Source of the DNA: an uncultured Candidatus Babeliaceae bacterium
Lineage (GTDB): Bacteria > Babelota > Babeliae > Babelales > Babelaceae
Direction of reading: 5' to 3'
DNA: 32,000 nt
Assembly (NCBI GenBank): GCA_963704655.1
Contig: OY969927.1
Location: forward strand, 830,137 to 862,136
Below the pieces are notes generated by a model that was given only the letters and a program-made list of their open reading frames with translations, was not told the DNA's origin and made no database searches. Of the stretch, positions 5,723 through 25,001 are shown one piece after another (the stretch's first letter is position 1; each line of letters starts with the position of its first letter). Made by a program: the position numbers and the translations under genes.

Positions 5723-5761
5723 ATTTGACAATAAAAACAAATAAGAGCAAAATTCCTAATT

Positions 5762-9277: not shown

Positions 9278-9483
9278 ATATTATCCCTAAACAATAAATG
9301 CAGAGTTTTTATATCTTTCCTATTTAATCATTTAAATGCATTTACAGTCTATAAACGATGAAATTATCATGAGAAGCCCTTATAAAAACCCTTGAACAGC
9401 TGCAGGCTCTTGGCAAAGATCAACTTTAAGCCTTTTTACGCCATTTATTTTTTATTCAATTTATTATATAATAAGCCATATAT

Positions 9484-9558
9484 GTGCCCAGCCTTCGCTT
9501 ATCCACGCCATCGGGCTTGGTAAGTTATGCCCGGCACAGCCATAGCTTCCAGCTGGAT
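9484..9558 (+). other. Degenerate tRNA-like / att-like remnant upstream of tRNA-Arg
   Basis: GTGCCCA (9484-9490) equals the tRNA 5' acceptor strand. GGCACAGCCA (9533-9542) resembles the acceptor 3' strand plus CCA. CCATAGCT-TC-CAGCTGGAT (9540-9558) matches tRNA positions 5-21 apart from a 2-nt insertion. No intact cloverleaf could be drawn. Confidence 0.3.
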
Positions 9559-9592
9559 CATCCAGCTTAAAACAGATATCCTTGATAACAAT

Positions 9593-9669
9593 GTGCCCAT
9601 AGCTCAGCTGGATAGAGCAACGGATTTCTAATCCGTAGGTCGTAGGTTCGAATCCTACTGGGCACACCA
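9593..9669 (+). tRNA. tRNA-Arg (anticodon UCU), CCA encoded
   Basis: Hand-folded cloverleaf: acceptor GTGCCCA/TGGGCAC, D-arm GCTC/GAGC, anticodon stem ACGGA/TCCGT with loop TTTCTAA (anticodon TCT), T-arm GTAGG-TTCGAAT-CCTAC, discriminator A, then CCA. 77 nt. Confidence 0.93.
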
Positions 9670-11124
9670 ATTTCCAGTTTTTGCAGTTTCCATCACCACC
9701 CCAAATACGGGTTTAAGCTCCACGTCGATCTTTCCATCATTATAAGAACAGTTGGATGTTAAGAGCTCAATTATTCTTCTTTTAGCTGCAGCATTTCCAT
9801 TTTTAAACAGCTCAGCCGCATTTTTCGCAAGTTCGATGATAAAGCGTGCATTTTCAAGATATTGTGTATCTGCCTTTTGAACAGCCAATAATTTTGTTAG
9901 CAGTTCTTCTTTTTCTGCCGACCATTTTTGAGAATTGGTCTTCCAGAATTCTTCACTGATTTTGCCATCGAGCTTATCTAAATAGACCTGATCGATTCTA
10001 TTTTGTAATAAGCGTATCTGTTTTTCAAGCTGGGCAACCAAGCTATTATGGTATTCAATTTTGTCTTTTAAACTTTCACGAATTCCCTGTAAAATTATCT
10101 CTTGGTTTTCACTGGATACGTATAGGTTATCAACTATTATCGTAAATTGTTCTTCGATAGCTTCCTGTCGTATATATTCTTTCTTGCAGTTTCCTTTTGA
10201 AGTCGTGCAATAGTAATAAATATACTTATCCTTTTTAAGATCAGCTGTGAGCATACAGCCACATTTGCTGCATTTTATAAGATTGGTGTAGGGAAATATC
10301 CCTTTCTTTGACTTGCTTTTACGTGGATTAAGAAGAACTTCCTGAACGCGTTGAAAGAGCTCCTTGCTCACCAATGGTTCATGGGAAGCATTTTCATATT
10401 TTTTGCCATTCCAGTAAAAAACACCCGTATAGAATTCATTTTTAAGGATAGTTTCAACTTTGCTGGTGTAGAAGTTTTTGCCATTACGATAAACCATCCC
10501 ATCAGCTAACATCTTCTTGCGCAAAGACAGAAGAGAGTATGATCCAGTAGCATACAGTTCAAACATTTTCTTAACATATGGTGCTGTCTGTGGATCTACT
10601 AAGATGACCTTTTTGTCGCCTTTAAAGGTGTTAATATAACCATAAGGAGCTGTTGAAGGGTATGTTCCTTGAGCTGCTTTTTCAGTCATGCCTTTTTTAA
10701 CTTCTTCTGATAGATTATCAATGTGATTTTTAGCCATAAGTGCTTTGATTCCAAAAATGAATTTCTCATTAGAACGTGCTTCTTTGCTAAGTATTACGTT
10801 CTCTTTAACAAGATGAATCCTTATATCACAGTCTTGTACGAGACGTTCCAGTAAGGCGTAATCGAACATGTTTCGTAAAAGTCGATCTGTTTTTTCTACT
10901 AAAAGATGCTTAACTGATCTGTTTTCATCAAAGAAAGCGAGCATTTTATTAAATTCTGTACGCCCAGCCTTTTTTGCAGTTTCTGCGTTAGCAAATTCTT
11001 TTACAATCGTATAATTGTTTTTAGCGGCATATTCATGTAGAACTTTAAGCTGCGCAGGGATCGAGAAACCTTCGACTTCTTGGTCTTTTGATGAAACTCG
11101 GGCGTAGATGACGGCTTTATTCAT
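9655..11124 (-). CDS. Large serine recombinase (integrase)
   Basis: 489 aa with an N-terminal resolvase catalytic domain (AVIYARVSSKDQ with the nucleophile Ser). A central recombinase domain follows, then a Cys-rich zinc ribbon (CSKCGCMLT...YYYCTTSKGNCKK) and a coiled-coil tail. The last five codons and the stop (NWCAQ*) are encoded inside the tRNA 3' end. Confidence 0.9.
   Translation of the reverse strand: MNKAVIYARVSSKDQEVEGFSIPAQLKVLHEYAAKNNYTIVKEFANAETAKKAGRTEFNKMLAFFDENRSVKHLLVEKTDRLLRNMFDYALLERLVQDCDIRIHLVKENVILSKEARSNEKFIFGIKALMAKNHIDNLSEEVKKGMTEKAAQGTYPSTAPYGYINTFKGDKKVILVDPQTAPYVKKMFELYATGSYSLLSLRKKMLADGMVYRNGKNFYTSKVETILKNEFYTGVFYWNGKKYENASHEPLVSKELFQRVQEVLLNPRKSKSKKGIFPYTNLIKCSKCGCMLTADLKKDKYIYYYCTTSKGNCKKEYIRQEAIEEQFTIIVDNLYVSSENQEIILQGIRESLKDKIEYHNSLVAQLEKQIRLLQNRIDQVYLDKLDGKISEEFWKTNSQKWSAEKEELLTKLLAVQKADTQYLENARFIIELAKNAAELFKNGNAAAKRRIIELLTSNCSYNDGKIDVELKPVFGVVMETAKTGNWCAQ
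9660..9669. repeat. Candidate attL core (GGGCACACCA) within the tRNA-Arg acceptor 3' strand and CCA
   Basis: It is identical to the 10-mer at 23815-23824 in the same orientation. Confidence 0.55.
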
Positions 11125-11152
11125 GATGCCTTTTCCGGATGCGTGTGAAATT

Positions 11153-11578
11153 TTATTTTTGTTTTGTTTTCATCCAAATAGCTACAATAGCACCTAACGC
11201 CAAAAATGTTAGCCCAAGTAAATCATTATTCGTGCTTTGCCTTTGGATTTGAGCTTGCTCTAGATGTATTTGTTGCCGATAAGCCCTTTCTTCTTGCTGA
11301 AGTCGTTCTTGGTGAGCGATCTCTTCCTGCCGCAATCGTTCTTGGCGGGCAATTTCTTCTTGTTGCAGCTGCTGTTGATAGGCTATTTCTTGCAATTTTT
11401 GTTGGTGCATTAATTCTAATAGTTCGCGTTGTGCGGCCATTTCTCTTTGATGAGCTTGTTCAGCAGTCTTTTGGCGAGCAAGAGCCTCGAGAGCCTCGCC
11501 AATCCCTTTGCCTAGTGCGCTGCCAAAACGCGCTCCCGTACTTTCTGTCGGAGTAAATCCATTAGAAAAATTTGTCAT
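11153..11578 (-). CDS. Gln/Glu-rich coiled-coil protein with a C-terminal TM anchor (tail-anchored)
   Basis: 141 aa with the repetitive stretch QERLRQEEIAHQERLQQEERAYRQQ and the C-terminal hydrophobic segment LLGLTFLALGAIVAIWM. The antisense ORF 11206..11556 is a low-complexity shadow. Confidence 0.6.
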   Translation of the reverse strand: MTNFSNGFTPTESTGARFGSALGKGIGEALEALARQKTAEQAHQREMAAQRELLELMHQQKLQEIAYQQQLQQEEIARQERLRQEEIAHQERLQQEERAYRQQIHLEQAQIQRQSTNNDLLGLTFLALGAIVAIWMKTKQK

Positions 11579-11601
11579 TATATTTCTTTATATTATTTTA
11601 A

Positions 11602-11796
11602 TTAGCTTCTTGAATAAGAATTGACGTATTTATACCCATTACTTGGCTTAAAATAACCTTTGGTACTTTTAGTTTTAATCCTGCCTGTAGATTTGCTAAC
11701 TTTTCCAAAGCCATCATACATAGCCTTCTTTGAAAGTAATTGAGTGGTTGAAATAAGGCATATAATAGCGAATATTTTTACAAAATAGTGTTTCAT
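11602..11796 (-). CDS. Small basic secreted protein
   Basis: 64 aa with signal-like MKHYFVKIFAIICLISTTQLLS, followed by a Lys/Tyr/Gly-rich tail (KGYFKPSNGYKYVNSYSRS). Confidence 0.5.
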   Translation of the reverse strand: MKHYFVKIFAIICLISTTQLLSKKAMYDGFGKVSKSTGRIKTKSTKGYFKPSNGYKYVNSYSRS

Positions 11797-11826
11797 TTGG
11801 GTTTTTTCGATTATTGACAGATATTG

Positions 11827-12009
11827 TTATTCTTTTGATTCGACTTCTTTTTCATACAACAGACGAATGCCTTCGCAAATAATTGTAGATCGGTCCGTTT
11901 TATTGCGATCACGTAGGCGCTTAATGAAGATCTCATCTAAGAGGTGTTCATCGGTTAACGACATATAAACGGTAGTTTTTGCCTTTTTTGGAACTTCCGA
12001 TTCTTGCAT
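11827..12009 (-). CDS. Putative ribbon-helix-helix (CopG/Arc-like) DNA-binding protein
   Basis: 60 aa with a beta-strand-like TTVYMSL followed by two helices (DEHLLDEIFIKRLRD; RSTIICEGIRLLYEKE). It is divergently transcribed from the Hsp70-like operon across a 183-bp intergenic region. Confidence 0.5.
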   Translation of the reverse strand: MQESEVPKKAKTTVYMSLTDEHLLDEIFIKRLRDRNKTDRSTIICEGIRLLYEKEVESKE

Positions 12010-12180
12010 ATTTTTCCTTAAATAATGAATTTTCTCTTATCTATAATGGCTCAATTAGAGAAAGACGTCAAGTAATTAAACAAGTTAAATGCAAAAACTA
12101 CTTTACATTATGTCATTTTTTGATAATTTTATAATAAGAAATAAATAATATAGCTTAATTAACAAAATCCAAAGATTATT

Positions 12181-12188
12181 GGGGAGGA
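12181..12188 (+). promoter_or_regulatory. Shine-Dalgarno site for the Hsp70-like gene (TTG start)
   Basis: GGGGAGGA ends about 5 nt before the TTG at 12193. Confidence 0.7.
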
Positions 12189-12192
12189 TATT

Positions 12193-14676
12193 TTGTCTAC
12201 TATTGAAATTGGGATTGATTTAGGAACCACAAATTCCTCTATCGCGGTCATTCAACAAAATGCGGTACAGGGCATTAAAAATGCTTCAGGGGAAGAAAGT
12301 ACCCCTTCTGTCATCTACGCTGATAAAAATGGAAACATTGTTGTCGGGTCGAGAGCGAAGAGAATTATGAATAATTCCAAAGAAAACCTGCAAAATAGCA
12401 AGGCCGAAATCAAGCGTTTGATGGGTACAGCAGAGACTATTTTTTTCCCCAACTTGAATAAAAAAATGCTTCCCGAAGAAATTTCGGCAGAAATTCTGAA
12501 AGTACTTATAAATGATGCTAAGAGGAAGTACCCAGGGCTGCTTTTAGATGCGGCTGTGATTACGGTCCCTGCTTATTTTTCTACTGTGCAATCTGAGGCG
12601 ACGAAAAGAGCTGGAGTTTTAGCGGGTTTGAGGCAAGTAGTTCTTCTTCAGGAACCAATTGCCGCAGCAATCGCATATGGTTTTCTTAATCAGAAGAACG
12701 AAAATTGGCTTGTATATGACCTAGGTGGCGGTACTTTTGATGTTGCTCTCGTAGCATTGCGTGATGGATTTCTTACAGTTCTTGCCCATGCGGGAGATAA
12801 TTTTCTCGGTGGTAAAGACTTCGACGCTGCGATCATACAAAATTTAATTCTTCCATCTCTTTCTACCAAAGGTATCGTTTTAGATCCGTCAACTCACTCA
12901 GAAATCTTTAGTTACTTGAAAGAACTTGCTGAATTAGCAAAAATTGAACTTACCACGTGCGAAAGGACAACTATCGATATCGATGTCCAAGTAAATCAAG
13001 CCCAGGTCGAGCATTCTATTGAAATAACAAGGACAGATCTGCTGGAAAGCTGCAAACATTTGCTTGAAAAAACGGTCGACCTTTGCAAGAAGACAATCAG
13101 TGACGCCAATGTGGATCCAGCAACAGTTCAAAGAATTGTTCTTGTCGGTGGGCCGACACAAATGCCAATCTTACAAACTTTTTTGAAAAATTCCTTGCGA
13201 ATCAATGTAGATGGAGGTTTAGATCCTCTACTAGTGGTTGCAAAAGGTGCTGCTATGTTCGGCAATCAAACAGTAATCACTACCCCTGAAGGACAAGGGG
13301 ATATCGACATATCAAACGTTTCCTGCCAGCTCGAAGTAAATTACAATCCAGTAACATCCGATGATGAACAAATTGTCACAGGCAAGGTTTTGCGCATCAC
13401 TGGTGCATCTCAGCCATATTCAGTTCAGTTTGCAAGCTCTGATGACTCCTTTGCGTCTGAAGAGATTCTTATTAAAAATGGCAAATTTATACTGACGCTT
13501 CCTACAGGCAAAAAAGGTACATCATATTGGATTTATGTTAAAGACAATGATGGTCAGCTGATTACTTCAGCTCCTGAAAGCATTCAAATTAATAGAGGCA
13601 TTTCTATCATGGGAGCCCCCCTTCCTTATTCAATTGGCGTATCCGTGATTTCTCTTTCTTCCCACAAAGGTTATGCTGATCCGACCGAGACAATAGAATT
13701 CTTTTTTTCTAAAAATAGCATTTTGCCCCTTAAAGAAAAAAAACGCTTTTATACTCTTGCCGATTTAAGAGCAGGATCCTCCGAAAATGCTCTCCCTATT
13801 TGCATTTATGAAGGCGAATCTCTTATCACAAATCGAAATACTTTAGTCTGCCATTTGGCAATCACAGGAAAAGCAATTTCTAAAGATTTGAAAAGAGGCA
13901 CCCCGGTCGACATCACAATTGAAGTTAATGAATCAAGAGAGTTGAGTGTGATGGCCTATCTTCCGGATTCTGATATTACCCTTAATGCAAGAGAAACTTT
14001 GTATTTTGATGCTGCTAAAATTGACGAGGTAAAGAAGGATTTTACAGAGCAGGTAACACGCTCAGAATCCATAGCTGCATCTGCAGGGCCAATAAATGAA
14101 ACCAATGGCATCAAGAATATGATTAAAGATATTCAATCTACTATCGATGACTCAGGATCAGACTCAGATCAGCAAAGAAAGGCAGAAAAACAAGTAAAAG
14201 ACTTGATGATGGCCCTTGATCGAATTGAGGCGAAAACAAAATTTAATAGCAATGTTGCTACTTTCTGGCAAGAATGCCAGGAGCTCACTGATTATCTGGA
14301 AGATTGTAATCCGCCTGATAAACGCACCGAATACGAAGCCACATATAATACTCTTCGTAAAGAAGGATTAATGGCTATATCTAAAGAAGATGCGATATTA
14401 TTAGAGCATATTGTTCAAAAATTGAGTCGACTTAATTTCAGATGTGTGTATAACGATGTTCGTTATCTGACCTCATGGATTAAAGATTTAATAAAACAGG
14501 TGCAGGAAAAGGCCCATCTCCATCCTACTCTTCCAGACTTAATCAACAGAGCCAAAGATGCCCTAGCTAAATTAAATGTAAAAGAGATGCAGGAGCTTAT
14601 TCATGCGCTTGATCCATTTACGGAGGAAGAAGGAAAGCATCAGGTTCGATTTGTGAAGTCGGGAATTACGTTATGA
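12193..14676 (+). CDS. Atypical Hsp70-family ATPase (NBD + ~110-aa insert + SBD-beta-like domain + long helical tail)
   Basis: 827 aa with Hsp70/actin-fold motifs GIDLGTTNS, EIKRLMG, VITVPAYF, EPIAAAIAYG, VYDLGGGTFDV and VLVGGPTQMP. An SBD-like segment is present (ALPICIYEGES...KRGTPVDITIEVNESRELSVMAYL). The stop overlaps the next start (ATGA). Confidence 0.88.
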   Translation: MSTIEIGIDLGTTNSSIAVIQQNAVQGIKNASGEESTPSVIYADKNGNIVVGSRAKRIMNNSKENLQNSKAEIKRLMGTAETIFFPNLNKKMLPEEISAEILKVLINDAKRKYPGLLLDAAVITVPAYFSTVQSEATKRAGVLAGLRQVVLLQEPIAAAIAYGFLNQKNENWLVYDLGGGTFDVALVALRDGFLTVLAHAGDNFLGGKDFDAAIIQNLILPSLSTKGIVLDPSTHSEIFSYLKELAELAKIELTTCERTTIDIDVQVNQAQVEHSIEITRTDLLESCKHLLEKTVDLCKKTISDANVDPATVQRIVLVGGPTQMPILQTFLKNSLRINVDGGLDPLLVVAKGAAMFGNQTVITTPEGQGDIDISNVSCQLEVNYNPVTSDDEQIVTGKVLRITGASQPYSVQFASSDDSFASEEILIKNGKFILTLPTGKKGTSYWIYVKDNDGQLITSAPESIQINRGISIMGAPLPYSIGVSVISLSSHKGYADPTETIEFFFSKNSILPLKEKKRFYTLADLRAGSSENALPICIYEGESLITNRNTLVCHLAITGKAISKDLKRGTPVDITIEVNESRELSVMAYLPDSDITLNARETLYFDAAKIDEVKKDFTEQVTRSESIAASAGPINETNGIKNMIKDIQSTIDDSGSDSDQQRKAEKQVKDLMMALDRIEAKTKFNSNVATFWQECQELTDYLEDCNPPDKRTEYEATYNTLRKEGLMAISKEDAILLEHIVQKLSRLNFRCVYNDVRYLTSWIKDLIKQVQEKAHLHPTLPDLINRAKDALAKLNVKEMQELIHALDPFTEEEGKHQVRFVKSGITL

Positions 14677-16490
14677 ACATCCAGCTACCGCAGGTTTTGA
14701 TTAGAAATTCATTCAATATACTAGGCCTTTCTTCTTCTGCTACTTTAAAGGAAATTAGAAAAAGAACTCAGCAACTTTTACAACTTGCAAAAATTGAAGA
14801 GATGCAAAAGTTTGATGCTGATATCGGGCATGTCTGTGAATTTCGAAATGAGAACGAAGTTCGGCTTGCAATGGAAAGAACATCGAGCGTCAAGGAACGC
14901 CTACGGGAAACCTTTTTTTGGTTCGATGACCATAATATAGAAAATCAGAAAGCCATTGCCCTTATTTCGCAAGAGAATTATCGTGAAGCTATAGCTATCC
15001 TCGAAAAAACGAATGCTGCAAGCATGGATTGGTTAGAGCATAAGAACTTAGCCCTGGCTTTGATTTTCCAAGCCTTTGCTTCCTCGGATCTTAGTAGTTT
15101 TAGTCACTCATTAGAGTTATGGAAACGAATCGTAGAGTCTGAAGTTTTTTGGAAGTTCTATGAAAAAAATTATATGCTTCATGATGAGTTTGGAACGTCT
15201 ACATTCTTATTTCAGGAATTTAGAAGCTCAATTTACGAATCTTTATCCGCAATGACAGTTTCTTTCTATCATCAAACTAAAAATCCTGAAGCCATAGGCA
15301 TTTATTTTTCTGAATTCGGTCAAATAGAAAAATCTATAGACTGTGAGGTTATTCAGCCAATCGTGACTAAGATTAAAAAAGAAATAGAAGACTTAGAAAA
15401 AATAGCTTCAGAATCGAGCAGCGATGCGAGCTTGATAAAGCAGGCTCTAGAAAAAATTCATAAATACTTTGTGAAACTGGATCAATTTAAACTCTTCGAA
15501 TATTCGCCATTAACTATCCTAAAAAATGACTCTGCTGAAAAATTACGATCTATTTCTATTGATATCTATAATCAGAGTGAGAATGCTGAGTTAGCCTCAT
15601 TGTTCCTTGATCAAAGTGCAGAGCTTGCTATTTCTGATGTAATTGTAAGAAAGATTGAGTCTGACAAAAAAGTGATAAAAAACAATGAATTATGGGAGGC
15701 AATTTCTACCAGGTTCAATCGAATAAAAGAATTAATCGCAGAGAAAAAAATCGAAGAAGCTAAAAGTGTTTATTACGATTTGGACAATGAACTGGCTAGG
15801 CAAAATAACGGGTCATCTAAAGATACTAGAATCGTTCTGCTTATTCGCCTTTGCTATCAATTGATGGGGAAGGGACATGAACTTTTCAATAAAAAAAAGT
15901 TTGGTATCAAGATTCTTGCGATTGGCGCTTTTTTAAATCGGCAAAATCATAAAGATGCGATACATATTTTTGAGTATGTAATTGAAATATTGATGAATAA
16001 AATCTCTATATTAAGTTTTATAGATATTTACAATGACAGATCTTATCTCTTAAAAGAAATAGAAAATATATCAAACTCTCTAGAAAATTGTGAACTTTCT
16101 GATTTAATAAATGAACATGAACCGTACTTAAAATCACTAGAAATGTTTGCCGATGGGCAAGAGAATGAGGATACGCAAGCTGTAATACATGTGCTAGGTT
16201 TTGCCATATACTTTAGCATTTTGTATCGCAGGATTCGTGGTATTATGCAAAGAAAAATGTGGCAATGGGTAGCTTGTGGAACGGTAATTGCCTTCTATTT
16301 CTTAGTAATTATGAATAATGACAAGTGCGAATCAAAAATTGAGAAAGCTTTAACCTACGAAGAAAAAAGTATTATTGAATATTTGCAGGAAAATAGCCCG
16401 GAAGTACTTAAGAATATTAGAAGGGAGGGTTATTCTGATAAACAGATAGCCCAATATGCTTTAGACCAAATAGCGAATGAGAAAAAATGA
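14673..16490 (+). CDS. J-domain-like (HPD-less) helical protein with two C-terminal TM helices
   Basis: 605 aa. The N-terminus, NSFNILGLSSSATLKEIRKRTQQLLQLAK...VKERLRETFFWFD, resembles J-domain helices I-IV but has no HPD tripeptide. A long alpha-helical middle follows. Hydrophobic segments AVIHVLGFAIYFSILY and WVACGTVIAFYFLVIM lie at about nt 16176-16316. It has ATGA overlaps with both neighbours. Confidence 0.7.
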   Translation: MNIQLPQVLIRNSFNILGLSSSATLKEIRKRTQQLLQLAKIEEMQKFDADIGHVCEFRNENEVRLAMERTSSVKERLRETFFWFDDHNIENQKAIALISQENYREAIAILEKTNAASMDWLEHKNLALALIFQAFASSDLSSFSHSLELWKRIVESEVFWKFYEKNYMLHDEFGTSTFLFQEFRSSIYESLSAMTVSFYHQTKNPEAIGIYFSEFGQIEKSIDCEVIQPIVTKIKKEIEDLEKIASESSSDASLIKQALEKIHKYFVKLDQFKLFEYSPLTILKNDSAEKLRSISIDIYNQSENAELASLFLDQSAELAISDVIVRKIESDKKVIKNNELWEAISTRFNRIKELIAEKKIEEAKSVYYDLDNELARQNNGSSKDTRIVLLIRLCYQLMGKGHELFNKKKFGIKILAIGAFLNRQNHKDAIHIFEYVIEILMNKISILSFIDIYNDRSYLLKEIENISNSLENCELSDLINEHEPYLKSLEMFADGQENEDTQAVIHVLGFAIYFSILYRRIRGIMQRKMWQWVACGTVIAFYFLVIMNNDKCESKIEKALTYEEKSIIEYLQENSPEVLKNIRREGYSDKQIAQYALDQIANEKK

Positions 16491-17560
16491 TAAAATTTGC
16501 CAAACCATCATTTCCGCCTGGATGGATTTTGCCTGACGGAGCGAAGATTTTAAAAAGAATCGATAAGCAAGAATTTGCTGAAGTGTTTGAGCTGAATACC
16601 GGAGAGTATCTTTATTTATTTCATGAAGAAAAAATTGCAAAAAAACTCAAAAGCCGCGGAATTTCACATGAAATCTATTTTATTAGCGGTGCAAAAGCTA
16701 TTGGGAAAAAATATTCTGACCATAAAGATGGTGATCTTCCAGAAAGGTTGAAAAATATTATCCAAAGAAGAGGGCTAGATGCTATTGCAGGTATGACTGC
16801 ACTTAAGAACACTTTAGTTAGAGATGTTATTCAGCCGTTTCTAAACTGGGAGGCATATGAAAAATATGGCGTTACCCCATCTAATGGTATTCTTTTATTC
16901 GGCCCTCCTGGTTGCGGTAAAACATTTATAGCAAAAAAACTTGCAGAGGCAATGAAAGCTGAGCTTATTGAATTGAGCGAGGGAACCGTTGGTAGCCCTT
17001 ATATTCATGCAACCTCCACAAACATTGTGCAGGCGTTTCAAAAAGCTGCGATGGTAGCTCCATCTGTACTCTTTGTAGATGAAATTTCAGGATTAATGCC
17101 AAGAAGAGATGGACTATCTTCACAAGAGCAATACAGAGAAGCAGAAATCAGCGAATTTTTGATGCAGATGGAAAGCAGTGTAAAGAATAAAGTCCTAGTA
17201 GTTGCAGCAACTAATTTCCCAGAGAAAATCGATCCGGCAATTTTACGTTCTGGGCGAATGGATAAAAGAATCTTTATCTCACCCCCTGATGCAGAAGCAA
17301 GATGCGAATTATTGCACCTGTTTTTAGAAGAAAGACCCATTGATAAAGAAATCGACTTTGAAGAACTTGCCAGGATCACAGAAGGGCTAATTTCTTCTGA
17401 CCTAAAATTAATAGCTAACAATGCTGCCCTGAAGGCGCTACATAAGAATGCATTAATTTCTATGGAGTTATTAGCAGAAGAAGCTTCACAGTTTAAGCCA
17501 TCCTTAACTCAAACTGAACTAAATCGATATCGTGAATTCGAAGGCTACAATAGAGGTTAA
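16487..17560 (+). CDS. Classic-clade AAA+ ATPase (single AAA module) with an unrecognised N-terminal domain
   Basis: 357 aa with Walker A GPPGCGKT and Walker B VLFVDEI. The sensor-1 / second region of homology is VVAATNFPEKIDPAILRSGRMDKRIFISPPD, followed by a C-terminal helical lid. Confidence 0.88.
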   Translation: MIKFAKPSFPPGWILPDGAKILKRIDKQEFAEVFELNTGEYLYLFHEEKIAKKLKSRGISHEIYFISGAKAIGKKYSDHKDGDLPERLKNIIQRRGLDAIAGMTALKNTLVRDVIQPFLNWEAYEKYGVTPSNGILLFGPPGCGKTFIAKKLAEAMKAELIELSEGTVGSPYIHATSTNIVQAFQKAAMVAPSVLFVDEISGLMPRRDGLSSQEQYREAEISEFLMQMESSVKNKVLVVAATNFPEKIDPAILRSGRMDKRIFISPPDAEARCELLHLFLEERPIDKEIDFEELARITEGLISSDLKLIANNAALKALHKNALISMELLAEEASQFKPSLTQTELNRYREFEGYNRG

Positions 17561-17909
17561 AATCTTTTTTATTAATAATAACGACGGAGTGCTTCTGCGC
17601 ATGTTGAAATTTAATGATAACTTTAATTCAGAGGCATTTTAATTCAGACAAAAGTGATAAAGCATCTAAAAATCGTTTAAATATACAGCCCAATATTAAG
17701 TTAAAATAAATATCTTTTTCGTTATTAAGGCAAAGAACTTAATTATGATAATTTTGTAAATGCTTTAATACGTTGGTATTTCGTTATTGATATATTGCAT
17801 AAATCCATCTATACGCGGAGATCTCTTCCTTTTTGGGATTTTGCTTGCATTTCTTTTTAACGACAAGATAAGGTAAAAAAATAAATAGAACTTATACACG
17901 AGAAGAATA

Positions 17910-18008
17910 ATGGATTATGAAACTCTTCAATCGCTTGCTACCTTTACGTTTTTTTTATCAGTTTATAATTGGTTTAAAATATGTAAGTGCAAATGTGAGC
18001 GAAAATAA
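17910..18008 (+). CDS. Possible 32-aa hydrophobic, Cys-rich mini-protein
   Basis: My own translation gives MDYETLQSLATFTFFLSVYNWFKICKCKCERK*. It has only a weak RBS (GAGAAG) and sits just upstream of the 2-TM ORF. This call is speculative. Confidence 0.2.
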   Translation: MDYETLQSLATFTFFLSVYNWFKICKCKCERK

Positions 18009-18020
18009 AGAGGTATCAAA

Positions 18021-18242
18021 ATGATGGGCGCTGTTTTAGAAATTCTATCAATGATAGTATTTTTTTCTGTATTCCCATTAACTTTTTATTTAATTTTCTA
18101 TGTGGTTACTAAGATTGGAAAAAATAAGATAGTAACAGATGAAAAGACCAACCAACACAATCAATTGGTTAACCTGCTTCAAACGATTATCTGGCTCCTA
18201 ATTGTTTGCATAGTGCTTTTAATTACTCGATGGCACTATTAG
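18021..18242 (+). CDS. Small two-TM membrane protein
   Basis: 73 aa with a good SD (AAGAGG, 6-nt spacing). Two hydrophobic helices are separated by the charged loop KIGKNKIVTDEKTNQH. Confidence 0.5.
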   Translation: MMGAVLEILSMIVFFSVFPLTFYLIFYVVTKIGKNKIVTDEKTNQHNQLVNLLQTIIWLLIVCIVLLITRWHY

Positions 18243-18278
18243 ATTTTTCTTTACTCAATCTCGCTGTATGGCACTTCA

Positions 18279-18680
18279 TCACATATATTTTGGGATTTCT
18301 ACAACAACAACTTTGGTTTCCCCTTTATTTTCTGATTTATCCCTTAAGTTCATCAACCACTTACGATATTTGGGGTCATACAAAGGCATTGTATGCAGAA
18401 CTATCTGCTTATCTAACACCCCTTCTTGAGCAAGGCGTTCACGTCTTGAGCCTATTAATGTTAAGGCTATATCGTAAGCTTTGGCAAAGTATTCTGAGTT
18501 AGCTGGCAAATCATGAAAGATTTTTGGTGACATCATAATGCTAATTGGGAATTCATCTAAGGTAAGCGCATCTGGGTTCTTCGCCCATTCGGCAAACTCA
18601 TCTGCCAATTTTTGATACTCTTCTTCACTTGTAGGTGCTGTACGAAATTTGAGCAATTTATTTTTTTTAGAAGCTGCCAT
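18279..18680 (-). CDS. Hypothetical protein, possibly small-terminase-like (gp3-type DNA-binding)
   Basis: 133 aa. The pattern FAEWAKNPDALTLDEF...SEYFAKAYDIALTLIGSRRERLAQEGVL resembles phage DNA-packaging small-subunit or HTH proteins. The assignment comes from pattern memory only. It overlaps the upstream gene by 14 nt. Confidence 0.4.
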   Translation of the reverse strand: MAASKKNKLLKFRTAPTSEEEYQKLADEFAEWAKNPDALTLDEFPISIMMSPKIFHDLPANSEYFAKAYDIALTLIGSRRERLAQEGVLDKQIVLHTMPLYDPKYRKWLMNLRDKSENKGETKVVVVEIPKYM

Positions 18681-18933
18681 ATGATATCTCCTGGCTATAG
18701 ATTAAATCTTTTAGTGTTCTGTGGCTTTTTCGTATCTCGCTAATTAAGCTACGGTTATGTGTCCGTTCCGCCTTTGCAACTTTGGTTTTATGGCCATGCT
18801 TTTTGGGTATCGCTCCCCCATGGTAATAGCATCTGCCATTTTTCATAGCTGCTTGACGGCACGATAAACCGAAATTACTTCTTGCTTTAGCACCGCATCT
18901 TGGAAGCGATTTAAAATTCATCTTGAAGCGCAT
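18667..18933 (-). CDS. HGGxSTG-type Cys-rich domain protein (mobile-element associated)
   Basis: RCGAKARSNFGLSCRQAAMKNGRCYYHGGAIPKKHG matches the CGAKTRSG..C...AM.NGRC..HGG signature common in phage and plasmid genes. The true start may be Met5. Confidence 0.55.
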   Translation of the reverse strand: MRFKMNFKSLPRCGAKARSNFGLSCRQAAMKNGRCYYHGGAIPKKHGHKTKVAKAERTHNRSLISEIRKSHRTLKDLIYSQEISYGSF

Positions 18934-18963
18934 AAAATATCTTTCGTAACTGTTTTATATGAA

Positions 18964-18989
18964 AACGACGAGAATTTTTTCTCGTCGTT
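18964..18989 (-). terminator. Hairpin terminator downstream of the 19017..19364 gene
   Basis: AACGACGAGAA (18964-18974) and TTCTCGTCGTT (18979-18989) form a perfect 11-bp stem with a TTTT loop. On the minus strand the stem is followed by TTTTC. Confidence 0.6.
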
Positions 18990-19016
18990 ATAAAGCTATT
19001 TTAGAATGTATAAAAA

Positions 19017-19364
19017 TTATTCTCCCAACAAACCGTGATCTTTGAGCTCTTTAATAGCATCAGGAGAGTCTTGCAAAAGCGTTTGAATTAATTGCGGTTT
19101 TCTCATTTGCATCATTGTCGCCATCATAGGATTTTTAAGATACTGGCTATAATCATATAATGCCAATTCAACTGCATTGCTAACGCCTAAAGCTTCCTTT
19201 TGTTGCCCAGCCAAGTTTTTAACAATGTCTGTTTTTTCAATAAAATGGTCAAAGCCAGCTTGTTGTAATCGAGCTGTTAAGACCTTAGCTTCTGGTAAAG
19301 TTATCAAAACTGCTTGAAGCGAAGCTCCAGTAACTAGTAAACTTAAAAACAAAAGTTTTTTCAT
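19017..19364 (-). CDS. Small secreted hypothetical protein
   Basis: The track ORF extends to 19466. The internal ATG at 19364 has an AAAGGA RBS and yields a clean signal peptide (MKKLLFLSLLVTGASLQA), so I prefer the 115-aa form. Confidence 0.55.
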   Translation of the reverse strand: MKKLLFLSLLVTGASLQAVLITLPEAKVLTARLQQAGFDHFIEKTDIVKNLAGQQKEALGVSNAVELALYDYSQYLKNPMMATMMQMRKPQLIQTLLQDSPDAIKELKDHGLLGE

Positions 19365-19455
19365 AATATTCCTTTGTAGATTGGTTTGTTTTAATTTAAG
19401 ACTTTCTAAAGAAATTATAGAATGAATACCAAAAAATATCAAAGAAGCGCATGGG

Positions 19456-19908
19456 CTATTCTCCATTTTTAGATTTGCCCCCTACTTGAACCATCGCATT
19501 AAGCACAGCGTTGCCCTCAGAATGCACGTTGTAGTTAACGTTAATAGTTTGACTCTTGCCACGGTACTGTTGAAGTGTATTAAGAGCCTGGTGGCTAAGT
19601 CTTATCATCATCATTCCCTGCCCTATAATGTTGTAATTATCTTCTTCAATAATGGACATGGCCTTTAAGTGAAGCGCGACATATTGTGCAGCAAGTATAG
19701 ACTCAACAGTATCTTTGGGATTAATACCTCGTATTAAGGCAATAACCGCATCAACATCCTTTGCTGAAGGATCATAAATAGACGGGCCATAGATCATGAG
19801 CATTGCACGATTTACAAGCAGCCTTGCCGCATCTTGATTATCGCAGTTTATAGCTTCAACAAGAAGTGAAATTTGACTTGGCAACGATATTTTTTTTGTT
19901 TTCGCCAT
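19456..19908 (-). CDS. Conserved mobile-element hypothetical protein
   Basis: 150 aa with RBS GAGGAA upstream. The C-terminal pattern RLSHQALNTLQQYRGKSQTINVNYNVHSEGNAVL resembles a hypothetical family I have seen on plasmids and ICEs. I cannot name the family. Confidence 0.55.
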   Translation of the reverse strand: MAKTKKISLPSQISLLVEAINCDNQDAARLLVNRAMLMIYGPSIYDPSAKDVDAVIALIRGINPKDTVESILAAQYVALHLKAMSIIEEDNYNIIGQGMMMIRLSHQALNTLQQYRGKSQTINVNYNVHSEGNAVLNAMVQVGGKSKNGE

Positions 19909-19919
19909 GGATATTCCTC

Positions 19920-20151
19920 GGTTGAAAGGTTGAACGACTTCATTATCATGTTCAAATTATAATTCTAGCTCTAGGTCGATGGATTGCTGTCGATAAAAGG
20001 CTTGGTTGAAGGGTTGATAAATCTTATTACTCATTTTAAGTATCGATCTTGATCAACCCTTCAGTTTTAATTATTCATTATTAAATAAATATAGCCTATA
20101 GGATGTTTTTTAGGTTGAAACTACATTTCAACTTTTTTCAACAACTTCAAC
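19920..20151. repeat. Iteron-like GGTTGA(A/T) array with a 12-bp inverted repeat; candidate replication origin or operator cluster
   Basis: GGTTGAA occurs at 19920, 19928, 20004 and 20113, and GGTTGAT at 20012. Inverted copies are ATCAACC at 20052 and TTCAAC at 20127, 20137 and 20146. TGAAGGGTTGAT (20007-20018) and ATCAACCCTTCA (20052-20063) form a perfect inverted repeat around a 33-bp AT-rich spacer. Confidence 0.5.
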
Positions 20152-21813
20152 TATTACAGGTTTATAGATCCAATCCTTTCGGTGCTCTTTTTTTTCAAAA
20201 GTTACTCTACCACTGTCGATTAAAGTTTGAAAAATATACTCATATTCTTTAGAACCACCCTTCAACTTTTTTGAGGTAATAATTTGCGCCCACGTAACAG
20301 GTCTTTTTGAAGCAGCAGCCCATTTGCAAAGAGCTTCATGCATTATACGGCACTTCCGTTCATGCTCAGACTCTCCCAATTCTCCCTCAAAAAGCTGAAT
20401 TGTGGACTGTATAGCGCGATGCAAGATCGCAAAAGCAGCCCAGAGGGCTTCCTCGCTTATATCTTTTGTAGTCGGATCTATAAAAAGCTGTATGATCATT
20501 GCTAACTTTAAAAGATACGGACTCCATCTTTTTAAGTATGGGTCTAAGATTTCTCGACTTCGGTCGCTATAAGCTTTTGGCATATCATTGATTTTTTTAT
20601 GCATCGCTTCAAATACTGCTTTTGCAGAGCCTGCAAGAGGATTGAAGACGTAATTGTCACTTATCGCATCTAAAACATCCATTATTTCTGCTTCAATTTC
20701 ATGATCCGTTTTTTCTGTGTGGGCAGGCAAAGCAGGTGGAACTTCTTCTTGATGAGGTGGCGTAAAAATCAAAAAGCGGGCGAAAAATCCACTAGGGATA
20801 TCCGTTATTTTAAGGTTATCTTGAATCCAAGGTAAAGTAGAAACGCCACATATGGAAAAGCAAGGGCGTTCTAATATACAATCGCCCTGTGTTTTGGTTT
20901 TATATCTATAAGATGGTGGAACATCATAAAGTTCGGTGAATATAGCTTTTAAATCATTATTATGGTTTTTATCAAAATTTTGTAACCATGCTCCAAATTC
21001 ACTGGCAAGAATAACTCCTTGATGCCCTTGGCTTAGATGTTCGAGTAGGGCCTCTGCTGTCATTTTATTAGGCAAAATGACGTCTTGTCTTGAAATCGCA
21101 AGTATATCTTCCTCGATCATTTTTTTTTCTTTTGGATCTATTGTTATGCGGAGTGATGCATGTAACTTTTTGATCTGATCAGTTATGATTTTATTTTTTA
21201 CCCAAGCAAGGTTGGCCCCTTTATTAAGTGCCGTGCTCTTAAATTGTCCGCTTTTTGTGATGGATAGTATCCATAAGTTAGGAAAAAGAGTTTGAAAATA
21301 TGGGTATGAAACACGCTTTCCTAAAATAGCAGAGATTGTAGCCATCACAGACATTGTTATCATTATTGGGTGCGCATTTGTTGTTTCGCAAATAGAGAGT
21401 ATATAAGTACTGAGTGGAGGCGGTAGAAGCGATGGAGTAAAACCTTCGCAAGGATCGTCTTTTTTTTGACCAACCACAGACAATTTCTCGAGCTCTAAAG
21501 GTAGAAGATCATTCAAGCCGGCTTTGTCACAGAGTGAGTTAAATTCGGCTTGTTCATTTTCATTTAGCGGATGCGAATCATAAGTATACTCAGCGCCATC
21601 GCCCCAGTACATACATGTTAAGGATTCTTGATTATTTCTTAACGTAACTGATGCCATATACATAGCTGGTTTATTATAAGGTTGGGCTATATATTCGTAA
21701 GTATTACCATCTGGTGTGATCGGTCCATCTATGGCCAGATCATGTTCAGCCATATGTTGTCGACATTCTTCAAATAAATTACGTTTTTTTATGATATAAT
21801 TAAGATTATTCAT
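20128..21813 (-). CDS. DUF3987-like (YfjI-like) replication/helicase-type protein
   Basis: 561 aa. The segment FTPSLLPPPLSTYILSICETTNAHPIMITMSVMATISAILGKRV...NLWILSITKSGQFKST matches my memory of the DUF3987 core with a deviant P-loop. This family is typical of phage-like islands and satellites. Confidence 0.5.
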   Translation of the reverse strand: MNNLNYIIKKRNLFEECRQHMAEHDLAIDGPITPDGNTYEYIAQPYNKPAMYMASVTLRNNQESLTCMYWGDGAEYTYDSHPLNENEQAEFNSLCDKAGLNDLLPLELEKLSVVGQKKDDPCEGFTPSLLPPPLSTYILSICETTNAHPIMITMSVMATISAILGKRVSYPYFQTLFPNLWILSITKSGQFKSTALNKGANLAWVKNKIITDQIKKLHASLRITIDPKEKKMIEEDILAISRQDVILPNKMTAEALLEHLSQGHQGVILASEFGAWLQNFDKNHNNDLKAIFTELYDVPPSYRYKTKTQGDCILERPCFSICGVSTLPWIQDNLKITDIPSGFFARFLIFTPPHQEEVPPALPAHTEKTDHEIEAEIMDVLDAISDNYVFNPLAGSAKAVFEAMHKKINDMPKAYSDRSREILDPYLKRWSPYLLKLAMIIQLFIDPTTKDISEEALWAAFAILHRAIQSTIQLFEGELGESEHERKCRIMHEALCKWAAASKRPVTWAQIITSKKLKGGSKEYEYIFQTLIDSGRVTFEKKEHRKDWIYKPVIVEVVEKS

Positions 21814-21875
21814 TAAAATCTCTTTTCGATTGAGGCCATCTTGGCATATGGTGGCCTTATTTTGTTATGGATATG

Positions 21876-22142
21876 TCAATTTCTAACAATTTCTTCAAAC
21901 TTTGAAACCACCTCCCTCTCTATATGTTCCGCTACTTCTTTATTAATTGGGTAAAAAACATTGAGTCCTCCAGTGTGGTACTTTCTGGTCGGGTAAGTTA
22001 ATCGGTATCCGCCACGAGGGCGAGTGAAGATACCTATCGCACTCATATAAAAACAGTCATTTAAAATGAAGCTTGCGAATCCTACTAAGCCATTTTGGGG
22101 TTTAACAGGTGTGATCCGGATATTGTTGATTTGATATTGCAT
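21876..22142 (-). CDS. SpoVG-family nucleic-acid-binding protein
   Basis: 88 aa. NIRITPVKPQNGLVGFASFILNDCFYMSAIGIF...GGYRLTYPTRK...FYPINKEVAEHIEREV aligns with the SpoVG pattern (V.L......G..KA.ASI.LD..F.V..I.V....G.FVAMPS.K......HPIN). An AAAGGA RBS is present. Confidence 0.6.
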   Translation of the reverse strand: MQYQINNIRITPVKPQNGLVGFASFILNDCFYMSAIGIFTRPRGGYRLTYPTRKYHTGGLNVFYPINKEVAEHIEREVVSKFEEIVRN

Positions 22143-22290
22143 ACGTTTTTCCTTTATTTACTTTTTGTTTTTGATCAAGTTCCATTAATGCTATAAACAG
22201 ATCTGCAAGTTGCTTGCGCTCATCTGCTGATATCGGCTGTGTTCCTCGTGGAGGAATATGAATTTGCATTTTTAAGGATTTTTTAATCAT
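22102..22290 (-). CDS. Small hypothetical protein (doubtful)
   Basis: 62-aa ORF overlapping the SpoVG-like start by 41 nt. It has no clear RBS. Confidence 0.3.
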   Translation of the reverse strand: MIKKSLKMQIHIPPRGTQPISADERKQLADLFIALMELDQKQKVNKGKTYAISNQQYPDHTC

Positions 22291-22444
22291 GGGGCTATTG
22301 TAACCCCATATGTTAGGCCTAAATTAGGTCTAACTAGACTTAATCCACAAAGCGTTGAATCGTGCGTGTGTGAAGGTATTTAAAGAAATTGTAATGATGG
22401 CTATAGCTAAGAAAACTTTAATTTTAGCCCAAAAAGTATCGAAT

Positions 22445-23620
22445 TTAAGGAAGATATATGGGATTAATACGAACAAAAGACATATCAAAATCAAGAAAAT
22501 CTTTTAAACCGCATTCTGCGAATAGTTTCTGATTTATGTGCACACAAGCATCGTACATTGCCTGCATACCATCATCTTCAGGAGCTGTTCCGACAATATC
22601 TTCATACAAATTTTTAAAATAGCGAGGCAGATTTCTGTTGTTATATTTTCCTGAGAGATCTTCGAGTATTTTTCCAGGGTATCCATAAGCAGATCTGGGG
22701 TTTTTATTAGATTTTTTTTTATCCATTAATGCGAAGTTACGAAATTTTGCTATTTTCCCTTGACATGAGAAATATCTCTTTTTAGGACAATAACTCCAAT
22801 CTGTGATTTTAGTTTGCGGAATAGACATGGCGTGAATCAGCCTTTTTTGAGCATAAAGATGTAACTGCTGCATATACATTTTAAAATAGCGTGGATTAAA
22901 TCCTTGCTCGGGGAATTGAGTATCTTTTGTTGGGCCTATGGCCCGATTAAGAGCATTGTTGCGAACGGTCAAGGTAAGGTCATAAATAGGGTGTTGCTTA
23001 TGCGCAATGGCTTTTCGCTCTTTATGCTGTTTTTGATCGTAAATCCAGAGAAAGTCTGTGAGGTTATCAAGAACCCACCATTCACGCGTTAGTTTTATAC
23101 GATTAAAATGGTTATTTTCCTCAGACAACTCATCTGTATTGATATCAAATGTTATAGGTTGCTGAAGATTAGCCTCGTCGATCCTAGCATGTTGCCGTAT
23201 AAAAGGACGATGATCTACTCTTGTGTCTCGTAACAAGAACTTAAAAATATTTATTAATATCGTTAGTTGCATGAAAAAAGCTACAACAGAAAGATCTTGT
23301 TTGATCCAAGGCAGCGAATTAATAATATTTGGATCATTTATATTTTTTTCCTTGATGTAAGCTTGCAGACTCTTACAGATTGACGAAGTTTTTCTAAATA
23401 ACTTTTTCAGCAGAGAATTGAGTGGAGCAAAATCACCATGTCTGCTATTCCATATCTCGTTGGCTATTGGAACGAGTACTGGATCGGTTATGAATAATTG
23501 AGTAAACCTAGCAATTTTTGGGGCTGAAATTTCGATACTGTCGACATCCATGTATTCGCAAAGTACGCCTAATTCCTCTAGAAGTATCTTTTCTGGGTTC
23601 ATATTATTCTTGATATACAA
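22445..23620 (-). CDS. Hypothetical protein, first gene of the element's minus-strand block
   Basis: 391-aa ORF with no recognisable motifs. Confidence 0.65.
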   Translation of the reverse strand: MYIKNNMNPEKILLEELGVLCEYMDVDSIEISAPKIARFTQLFITDPVLVPIANEIWNSRHGDFAPLNSLLKKLFRKTSSICKSLQAYIKEKNINDPNIINSLPWIKQDLSVVAFFMQLTILINIFKFLLRDTRVDHRPFIRQHARIDEANLQQPITFDINTDELSEENNHFNRIKLTREWWVLDNLTDFLWIYDQKQHKERKAIAHKQHPIYDLTLTVRNNALNRAIGPTKDTQFPEQGFNPRYFKMYMQQLHLYAQKRLIHAMSIPQTKITDWSYCPKKRYFSCQGKIAKFRNFALMDKKKSNKNPRSAYGYPGKILEDLSGKYNNRNLPRYFKNLYEDIVGTAPEDDGMQAMYDACVHINQKLFAECGLKDFLDFDMSFVRINPIYLP

Positions 23621-23814
23621 CTTTTATGGTTTTACATTTTTAATTTCAACAAAAAGGATACAGTATATTTTGATCTAACACATAATTTATTTGCAGAAAA
23701 TCATCAGGTTTTGCCGTTAGCAGCAATTATTTTTTTAAGCTATTGCTGGTAGGAACAGACGAATGGCGTAGATTATGCTATTTTCTATAAAAGAGTTGGT
23801 GAAATATTCCGATA

Positions 23815-23824
23815 GGGCACACCA
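23815..23824. repeat. Candidate attR core (GGGCACACCA), a displaced copy of the tRNA-Arg 3' end
   Basis: It is identical to 9660-9669. The extended comparison 23806-23824 versus 9651-9669 gives 15/19 matches. It lies between the last element gene and the first chromosomal-type gene. Confidence 0.5.
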
Positions 23825-24044
23825 TCCTGCGCCTATTCCAGCCGTCGCTGCCATGCAGCTGTGGCGGACAGGCCAGGCCAATTCACAGCCGAAGTGTGAC
23901 AAAGCCTTGGCAGAGACGTATTGGCAAGCTACGCCAGACATGGTAATCTTAAAATAAACTCAATTTTGTTGTTTTTAAGATAAAGCGCTCAGCGCACCAT
24001 GCAGCTTATCTTCAGAAACAACTTTCATTAAATCGGTAAAAACT

Positions 24045-25001
24045 ATGAATATCCATAAAAAGGCTATAATATTTTTTTCTTTTATAATCTATCTCGGTAC
24101 AGCTTCAAGGCTTTTATCTTATAATGAAGATTCTTGCTATGCATTACATCGCTTGGTTGACCGACTTGAAGACACTCCAGAATCCGTCAAAATTCTGCGG
24201 CCAATTGTTCATAATTTTATAAAGCAAATAGATGGCGATCCAAATATCATGCTTTATACCGGTCATGGCAGTAAGTTTTATTTAGGTGGGGCTCTTATGC
24301 AGGCCATCAAAAAAAACAAGATCCATTTGGCTTATCTTCTTGCAGAGTGTCAACCAGACTATGACGTACGTGGCAATAATGATGATGGCTGCGAATTGAA
24401 CATACTGCATTTTTGTGCTAAATATTTGCCCAATTCAGATCAATCAGTGGCATTGATTAATCATATAATGACTCACAGCAACTTAAAAGTTATGATGGAG
24501 TTGCTTACAGATAGTAAGCGATGGCAAAGAGCAGAGATTATACTTCCAGTTGATCTTGCAGAAAAATACCATAATGATAAAATTGCAGCGTACTTTAGAA
24601 AAGGAAAAACTATGCTGTTCGGTTATACTATTATATATGTTCAAAATGTCGAAGAAACCCTTCAATTTTATCAAAAAGCTTTTTCTTGTAAAATAAAATT
24701 TTTCGCTGAAAGTAAACTTTATGGCGAGCTTGAAACAGGCACAACCATTTTGGCATTTTGTGATGAATCATTCTGTATGAAAAATGGGTTGGAGTTTACC
24801 AAAAATAGATCAAACACAACTTGCGCAGGCTTTGAAATCGGGTTCATGGCCGATGATGTTCATGCAGCATATAAACTTGCTATTGCACAAGGTGCACAAC
24901 CATTAAAAGAGCCTGCTCAAAAGCCGTGGGGACAGATTGTAGCATATATTAAAGACCTTAATGGTATTATTATCGAAATCTGCAATCCGATAAATTATTA
25001 A
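24045..25001 (+). CDS. Fusion protein: signal/TM + ankyrin-like repeats + C-terminal VOC (glyoxalase/bleomycin-resistance fold) domain
   Basis: 318 aa. The N-terminal half contains ankyrin-like units (GGALMQAIKKNKIHLAYLLAECQPDYDVRGNNDDGCELNILHFCAK). The C-terminal ~125 aa begin MLFGYTIIYVQNVEETLQFYQKAF and end PWGQIVAYIKDLNGIIIEICNP, typical of VOC proteins. Confidence 0.7.
   Translation: MNIHKKAIIFFSFIIYLGTASRLLSYNEDSCYALHRLVDRLEDTPESVKILRPIVHNFIKQIDGDPNIMLYTGHGSKFYLGGALMQAIKKNKIHLAYLLAECQPDYDVRGNNDDGCELNILHFCAKYLPNSDQSVALINHIMTHSNLKVMMELLTDSKRWQRAEIILPVDLAEKYHNDKIAAYFRKGKTMLFGYTIIYVQNVEETLQFYQKAFSCKIKFFAESKLYGELETGTTILAFCDESFCMKNGLEFTKNRSNTTCAGFEIGFMADDVHAAYKLAIAQGAQPLKEPAQKPWGQIVAYIKDLNGIIIEICNPINY

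Follow-up and report, generated by a model that had tools for sequence, protein, structure and literature searches.

An integrative element at the tRNA-Arg(TCT) gene of a Candidatus Babeliaceae genome and its family of tRNA-associated large serine recombinases

We analyzed a 32,000-nt stretch of DNA (hereafter, the window) from an uncultured Candidatus Babeliaceae bacterium (assembly GCA_963704655.1, contig OY969927.1, positions 830,137 to 862,136), in which a preliminary description made from the sequence had proposed an element bounded by a repeated tRNA 3' end. Positions 9660 to 23824 very probably represent an integrative element of about 14.2 kb, inserted at the tRNA-Arg(TCT) gene by a large serine recombinase whose phage-type attachment site (attP) lies within its own gene. 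Below, attB denotes the host attachment site, attL and attR the left and right junctions, and P, P', B, and B' the element- and host-derived arms; G000 is the window's genome, other G numbers are genomes of relatives, and L numbers are loci. The features that define the junctions, in window coordinates, are the following (aa, amino acids; ORF, open reading frame):

9593–9669, plus strand: intact tRNA-Arg(TCT) gene (ARAGORN; Rfam, 76 bits), B arm of attL
9655–11124, minus strand: large serine recombinase, integrated form of 489 aa, with Resolvase, Recombinase, and Zn_ribbon_recom domains
9660–9669, plus strand: attL copy of the 10-bp common core, the final 10 nt of the tRNA including CCA, within which crossover is placed
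23735–23814, minus strand: 3'-terminal part of the recombinase gene (26 codons plus stop), detached from the ORF and in frame with it only in the excised circle
23794–23814, plus strand: P arm of attR, kept in at least ten attR sites of seven genomes
23815–23824, plus strand: attR copy of the 10-bp core
23825–23880, plus strand: B' side, GC-rich hairpin; its homolog at empty sites is the terminator-like hairpin directly after the tRNA

Junctions, empty sites, and conserved arms

The 10-mer GGGCACACCA occurs at 9660–9669 and again at 23815–23824, on the plus strand both times, and a search of both strands of the whole single-contig, 1,298,077-bp genome found it at just these two sites; the repeat noted in the preliminary description is hence exact and forms a unique pair genome-wide. 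Counting one core copy, the island spans 14,155 bp. The only tRNA that ARAGORN detected in the window is the tRNA-Arg(TCT) at 9593–9669 (plus strand), the sole gene with this anticodon among the 39 tRNA genes of the genome, and Rfam returned no match besides this tRNA in 9400–24200. The preliminary description had also extended the repeat to 15 identities in 19 positions, and the arithmetic is right, but the extra 5/9 matches are not clearly above chance and are absent in two sister elements. A longer tRNA-derived repeat, not being reproduced in the sister elements, was rejected.

The prediction that an empty site should read the tRNA followed directly by the sequence from 23825 onward was borne out in two genomes. 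The relatives are too diverged for their flanks to match the window at the DNA level, the tRNA alone matching, but in G002 (same genus) and G009 (another genus) there is no recombinase at the tRNA, and the GC-rich stretch of approximately 30 nt directly after it aligns to the window from the first base past the 10-mer. In both empty sites and in the attR of G044, the post-tRNA sequence folds as a hairpin beginning in CCA (z −2.4 to −3.3), followed by a T-run in 2 of the 3 sequences, and it thus looks like the terminator of the tRNA; the longer version in the window folds no better than its shuffles (z −0.63). At the level of genes, G004 has a homolog of 27356–28999, oriented alike, some 2 kb downstream of its tRNA, and in G003 a homolog of 2703–4094 closely precedes the tRNA. 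The island is therefore enclosed by chromosomal flanks on both sides, and the second 10-mer does fall where mobile-type genes give way to chromosomal ones.

A second copy of the 10-mer is likewise present downstream of the tRNA in at least six other genomes that carry an Arg-TCT-linked recombinase, at distances of 6.6 kb (G239), 9.5 kb (G044), 10.3 kb (G235), 10.7 kb (G198), 11.1 kb (G205), and 17.8 kb (G041). The six independent elements have different cargo and an identical 10-bp junction, and the approximately 21 nt preceding the 10-mer fit one consensus; at several of the far ends the post-tRNA hairpin appears again after the 10-mer, the G044 attR reading core and then hairpin. When the consensus of P arm and core was built from the other genomes, it matched the window once, at 23794–23824, with 27 of 28 specified bases, and gave 0 matches in 100 shuffles. 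Conservation also extends over the first approximately 12 nt past the tRNA, which encode the recombinase residues just before the tRNA-derived codons. Beyond the Arg-TCT elements, two elements at tRNA-Glu keep both the P and P' arms, with the 3' end of tRNA-Glu as the core. In one of these (L038), a mismatch at the first position between the two copies of the core places crossover within the last 9 nt of the tRNA.

These junctions bear on whether the second 10-mer might be a chance match, with the true right boundary elsewhere. The 10-mer is short, and shuffled windows hold 0.68 matches each when one mismatch is allowed; exact copies, however, number two in 1.3 Mb, and the second is flanked by the family's P arm on one side and by empty-site sequence on the other, so that a coincidental match is very improbable.

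The length of the core had been considered slightly unusual for the enzyme, a view that we correct here. Common cores of serine integrases are typically 5–8 bp (PMC8092301), and a 13-nt core in tRNA-Ser has been reported for a small serine recombinase (PMC3816273). The 10-bp identity exists because the element must supply the stretch from the crossover to CCA in order to rebuild the single-copy tRNA-Arg(TCT); since the core is what rebuilding the tRNA requires, its length calls for no special enzymology.

G003 and G005 have recombinases 63–73% identical to that of the window at this position too, together with cargo that differs. The G003 gene (L030, G003:C15, 8042–9508; same genus) has one in-frame TAA, and this genome holds three more recombinase homologs elsewhere, one at tRNA-Arg(TCG). 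A second 10-mer on another contig of G003 was tried as the far end of its element; it has neither a P arm nor the hairpin and was left unassigned. No second copy was found in the G005 and G042 assemblies. G235 has six 10-mers on one strand within 24 kb downstream of tRNA-Arg (G235:C1:996073–1019928; L114, L119, L124, L128–L130): four internal sites with a clear P arm, core, and hairpin-like B' are spaced 2.5–3.0 kb apart, and the sixth copy, with a weaker arm, follows after another 5.2 kb. The attR-type sites here form a tandem array.

Several observations concern the surroundings of the island. Homologs of the left flank (2703–4094 and the uracil-DNA glycosylase gene; window 2703–6475) lie downstream of the tRNA and inverted in G002 (L029) and G004 (L031), the region around this tRNA having been rearranged within the genus. 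The window segments 9486–9545 and 23825–23880 belong to a dispersed family of short GC-rich repeats in an AT-rich genome, with further copies in G000 at about 66.7, 564, 574, 747, 972, and 1121 kb; the first of the two window copies closely precedes the tRNA, and the second forms the post-tRNA hairpin of the B' side. Two Sel1-repeat genes, 7418–9277 (minus strand) and 25111–27027 (plus strand), form an inverted pair with about 66% nucleotide identity over about 450 nt. The pair encloses the tRNA, the island, and a glyoxalase-domain gene, and recombination between its members would invert the whole segment.

The recombinase gene and its detached tail

The recombinase of the window, the only copy in its genome, matches PF00239 at residues 4–154 (E 2.7e-24), PF07508 at 178–264, and PF13408 at 279–327, as well as PHROG integrase family 95. 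The motif Y-A-R-V-S-S-K-D-Q is found at residues 7–15 (R-V-S-S-x-x-Q) and the zinc-ribbon cysteines are present; residues 344–460 are probably a helical coiled-coil region, judging from weak matches of coiled-coil type. The gene had been described as abutting the tRNA, which holds for the adjacency but understates the arrangement: it overlaps the tRNA by 15 nt, and its final four codons and stop read the 3' end of the tRNA in reverse complement. The codons just upstream of these (9670–9690) are the conserved P' arm.

If the two junctions are joined by recombination in the core, as in an excised circle, the recombinase frame gains 26 codons and ends at a stop at 23735–23737, giving a protein of 514 rather than 489 aa; in the integrated state, this tail is exchanged for 2–17 residues from the antisense of the tRNA. 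We examined the coding character of the tail in ten attR sites from seven genomes. The recombinase frame is open for 27–31 codons in nine of the ten sites, in which the other two frames mostly stop within 3–17 codons (two G235 sites are open for 24–25 codons in one of them). The tenth site, that of G044, has a one-base deletion beside the core, and 27 codons are open in the shifted frame. Alignment of the nine tails requires no gaps, and their common pattern reaches about 75 nt past the core, which is well beyond the size of a half-site for serine integrases. Past the P arm, the proportion of synonymous differences among these related sequences is 0.86 versus 0.48 for non-synonymous ones (pN/pS 0.56). 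The patterns are good, if not final, evidence that the tail is real coding sequence. Since the recombinase frame crosses the core into a conserved tail, integration cuts the integrase gene.

The sequence of events that we propose is as follows. The large serine recombinase would recombine attP with an attB formed by the last 9–10 nt of the sole tRNA-Arg(TCT) gene. The element would bring its own 10-nt copy, so that an intact tRNA is rebuilt at the left junction, and the right junction would be left with a 10-nt tRNA fragment beside the former terminator hairpin of the tRNA. With attP inside the recombinase gene, the gene of the circle would encode 514 aa; insertion would move its last 26 codons 14 kb away, to 23735–23814, exchanging the tail in the window for one residue and a stop from the tRNA antisense. 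Directly observed here are both junctions, the empty sites and arm conservation, the interrupted frame, and the association of the family with tRNAs. We infer that the window recombinase catalyzed this insertion, that the element may still be excisable, and that the change of C-terminus would alter the activity of the enzyme.

The direct repeat might instead be regarded as the target-site duplication of a transposase rather than an element-borne core, and a direct repeat of 10 bp with a single copy at empty sites formally fits such an origin. This explanation is scarcely credible given that neither a DDE transposase nor terminal inverted repeats were found, that the same site and junction recur in many genomes, and that the recombinase frame passes through the core into the conserved tail; furthermore, the first-position difference between the core copies of L038 is as expected if one is derived from the element and the other from the host.

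A number of results weigh against the proposed integration by the window recombinase. Composition gives no signal: the GC and skew profile yielded no boundary, the GC content being 36.4% in the island and 38.0% in the genome, and composition unlike the host is a feature not essential to the class of tRNA-integrated islands. A dyad scan of the reconstructed attP and attB gave best scores of 8–13/24 with no common center, so the crossover dinucleotide was not located. No directionality factor was recognized among the family matches, and the small ORFs match no Xis-like or helix-turn-helix family. The tail statistics come from related, non-independent sequences with saturated synonymous sites. 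Among genus members, the recombinases (63–73% identity) and host genes (69–82%) have diverged to a similar extent, and long residence with turnover of cargo is therefore not separable from repeated acquisition.

Nor was there a direct sign of excision: the best public sequencing run contained 0.19 of the sampled words, no run covering this organism at useful depth, and its contigs, at a depth too low to judge excision, contained neither a joint across 9670–23824 nor a circle junction. The viral and metagenome contigs searched held no circular or attP form; the pattern of a free attP (P arm, core, P' arm) had 0 matches in the viral contigs and 1 in the metagenome contigs. The latter (L081) was rejected as a free attP, with a stop 33 codons upstream, 47% GC, and no recombinase end, and is either a chance match or a remnant. 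The recombinase itself has no relative in the viral contigs.

The missing evidence for excision and the unrecognized directionality factor would also be expected if the element had been inserted as proposed and were now a fixed relic unable to excise, as would a GC content that matches the host. In addition, the in-frame stop of the G003 recombinase at the same site and the G044 tail, which is one base out of frame, indicate that decay at this site does occur. In the window, however, the recombinase has an intact, in-frame ORF and catalytic motif, both arms of attP and the detached tail are likewise intact and in frame, the DUF3987 gene is intact, and cargo varies among genus members, which implies recent turnover. 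We therefore regard a relic as unlikely, although by no means negligible.

A family of tRNA-linked recombinases

The association with tRNA genes extends across the relatives of the window recombinase. Among 34 related public loci, 31 hold a tRNA, and in 30 of these the recombinase ORF enters a convergent tRNA by 9–102 nt, the exception being a tandem arrangement. The tRNAs are those for Arg, Glu, Asn, Ser, Pro, Asp, Ala, Ile, Leu, and Phe, and the records are labeled Dependentiae, Melainabacteria, Bacteroidota, Patescibacteria, Bdellovibrionota, and others, some labels of metagenome-assembled genomes possibly being wrong. In a survey of 261 Dependentiae species genomes (homolog cut-off, E ≤ 1e-40), at least one homolog was found in 88, with about 150 copies in total. 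The best 28 Dependentiae loci comprise 27 in which the gene overlaps a convergent tRNA and one cut by a contig end. Their targets are Arg-TCT (8 of the 27), Glu-TTC (5), Arg-TCG (4), Asn-GTT (4), Arg-CCT (3), Ala-GGC (2), and Ala-CGC (1). The recombinase tree and the target tRNA agree: maximum-likelihood analysis unites the Arg-TCT enzymes in a single clade (support 100/99) whose sister group comprises those for Asn and Glu.

The best matches in a phage collection, two records (H1 and H2) 30% identical to the window recombinase, have the same layout beside tRNA-Leu and tRNA-Glu; being integrated copies, both were rejected as free phage genomes. At L051 (11558–13879; a Gastranaerophilales record), the recombinase abuts an 11-nt fragment of tRNA-Ala and the complete tRNA-Ala follows at a distance of 2.2 kb, beyond a second copy of the 3' end of the recombinase gene, an arrangement that looks like two elements in tandem. 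The Gracilibacteria homolog L068, which overlaps tRNA-Arg(CCT), has 11 in-frame stops under table 11, presumably reflecting the alternative genetic code of that lineage.

Integration of serine recombinases into tRNA genes was called rare in a 2011 survey, which cites phiRSM1 and reports eight Mycobacterium elements in tRNA-Leu (PMC3218068), and use of tRNA genes by serine integrases was described as unknown in 2014. The open-access literature contained no description of a clade of large serine recombinases with the layout seen here. If the clade is taken as a whole, it targets tRNA genes systematically, in about one-third of the Dependentiae species genomes searched and in records labeled with several other phyla.

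We tentatively put forward a wider reading, which we consider rather doubtful: the family may consist of natural retargetable serine integrases in which a conserved tail of approximately 25 residues, reversibly lost upon integration, acts as a built-in switch. Retargeting would be reflected in attP arms that stay constant while the core and the acceptor end vary among Arg, Ala, Glu, and Asn tRNAs at 56–73% protein identity. The switch would operate through a full-length enzyme, made from the circle, that integrates, and a truncated integrated form that is silenced or biased toward excision. Were this true, it would represent a control of directionality or dosage not described for serine integrases in the open-access papers searched. 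The split gene also suggests a testable idea about how an enzyme of this kind could detect the integrated or free state of its element. For the insertion of large DNA, serine integrases have become common tools, and their choice of target is an active question, on which close relatives that switched among seven tRNA species with the same element-side arms provide a natural series. The Dependentiae are obligate symbionts with reduced genomes, for which the islands seem to be a principal route of gene flow; an Hsp70/AAA+ operon, a type III restriction-modification system, and helicases are among the cargo of the window and its relatives.

Cargo and comparison with known systems

Between the recombinase and its detached tail, the island carries the following features:

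11153–11578, minus strand: 141-aa protein rich in Q and E, with a hydrophobic C-terminal segment and tandem repeats of 33 nt
12193–17560, plus strand: cargo operon of an Hsp70-like protein (827 aa), a 605-aa protein, and an AAA+ ATPase
18279–19908, minus strand: four small genes (133, 88, 149, and 150 aa)
19917–20151: iteron-like cluster, with 6 of the window's 15 GGTTGAW copies and a 15-nt inverted repeat
20128–21813, minus strand: DUF3987 protein with matches to PHROG families whose annotation is DNA primase or helicase; replication module
21876–22142, minus strand: SpoVG-like protein, common to three sister elements (L036, L038, and L043)
22445–23620, minus strand: 391-aa protein, an element gene with a C-terminus 58% identical in the L037 element

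The best PADLOC matches of the AAA+ protein are IetA models, with TRIP13 models also matched, and PADLOC returned no match for the Hsp70-like, 605-aa, DUF3987, or small proteins. The 605-aa protein has no family match, nor do the proteins of 133, 149, and 150 aa; for the 88-aa protein, a match to the HGGxSTG domain stayed below threshold (25.8 bits against a cut-off of 29), and the 391-aa protein matched unnamed clusters alone in the ESM Atlas, under the recognition level. Within the 141-aa ORF, three tandem 33-nt repeats, 72–77% identical, occupy 11287–11391. The iteron-like cluster beside the helicase gene is a candidate replication origin.

Cargo of sister elements includes a type III restriction-modification pair, a PD-(D/E)XK nuclease, a large helicase, and a D5-like helicase with a Toprim primase. 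The window's cargo operon recurs in decayed form at L038:1491–3104, in a tRNA-Glu element of another Dependentiae genome: residues 1–457 of the Hsp70-like protein (79% identical) are followed immediately by the final 88 residues of the AAA+ protein. The operon thus travels on these islands. No capsid, terminase, packaging, lysis, or conjugation family was found among the island proteins in Pfam, PHROGs, or NCBIfam. Of the features of phage satellites (phage-inducible chromosomal islands [PICI] or P4-like elements), an integrase, a DUF3987 protein, and iteron-like repeats are present, and no packaging family was matched. A satellite lifestyle is possible, and we read the family as small, self-replicating or mobilizable islands with variable, partly defense-type cargo.

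In general layout, the window element has an intact tRNA at one end, a direct repeat of its 3' end at the other, and an integrase gene beside the tRNA, as found in tRNA-integrated islands. It has no second attachment site in inverted orientation: within 9500–24000, no inverted repeat exceeds 37 nt at 70% complementarity, and the att arms take part in none. The Islander class of tyrosine-integrase islands likewise consists of an intact tRNA, the island, and a tRNA 3' fragment, with the integrase tRNA-proximal (PMC4383910), but differs in the enzyme family, and the identity at tRNA attB sites of tyrosine integrases is 25–76 bp in one survey (PMC8092301) versus 10 bp here.

With respect to the enzyme, the phage-type large serine integrases of phiC31, Bxb1, Listeria A118/LI, and TP901-1 share with the window recombinase the Resolvase and Recombinase domains and the zinc ribbon with a coiled-coil region, as well as short att sites with a short common core and a gene beside the junction; the window recombinase matches the A118 integrase (4kis, E 4e-8) and the catalytic domain of TP901-1, its similarity to solved members being weak. 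Phage-type enzymes are described as entering protein-coding genes with cores of 5–8 bp (PMC8092301), whereas the window enzyme targets and restores a tRNA 3' end and has attP within its own coding sequence.

Serine recombinases at tRNA genes have precedents in the Ralstonia filamentous phages phiRSM1 and phiRSM3, in which the enzyme also acts at a tRNA 3' end (tRNA-Ser) and a 13-nt core corresponds to that end, in reverse orientation and beside int (PMC3816273). The phiRSM enzyme, however, is of the small resolvase/invertase type, without the Recombinase and zinc-ribbon domains, and its attP is intergenic. The actinomycete integrative and conjugative elements (AICE) of Mycobacterium likewise encode PF07508 recombinases and reside in tRNA-Leu, but are conjugative actinomycete elements, and the text consulted on them reports neither an overlap of gene and tRNA nor a split gene (PMC3218068).

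Attachment sites within the integrase gene are known from two groups of tyrosine recombinases. In the myxophage Mx8, attP is inside int, and integration gives the gene a new 3' end (IntP/IntX), a change of C-terminus that is reported to alter activity, not abolish it (PMC6070905). In the SSV-type archaeal integrases, the recombination site is inside the ORF and integration splits the gene in two; the split inactivates the gene, and the title of the source calls such integrases "suicidal" (PMC7253208). The window recombinase resembles both in that its frame crosses the core and its tail stands in frame at 23735–23814. It differs from both in chemistry, Mx8 Int being a tyrosine recombinase of unrelated fold and the SSV-type enzymes archaeal tyrosine recombinases, so that the window's serine recombinase is alike in layout and not a member of either group; unlike the SSV type, it loses just the last 26 of its 514 codons.

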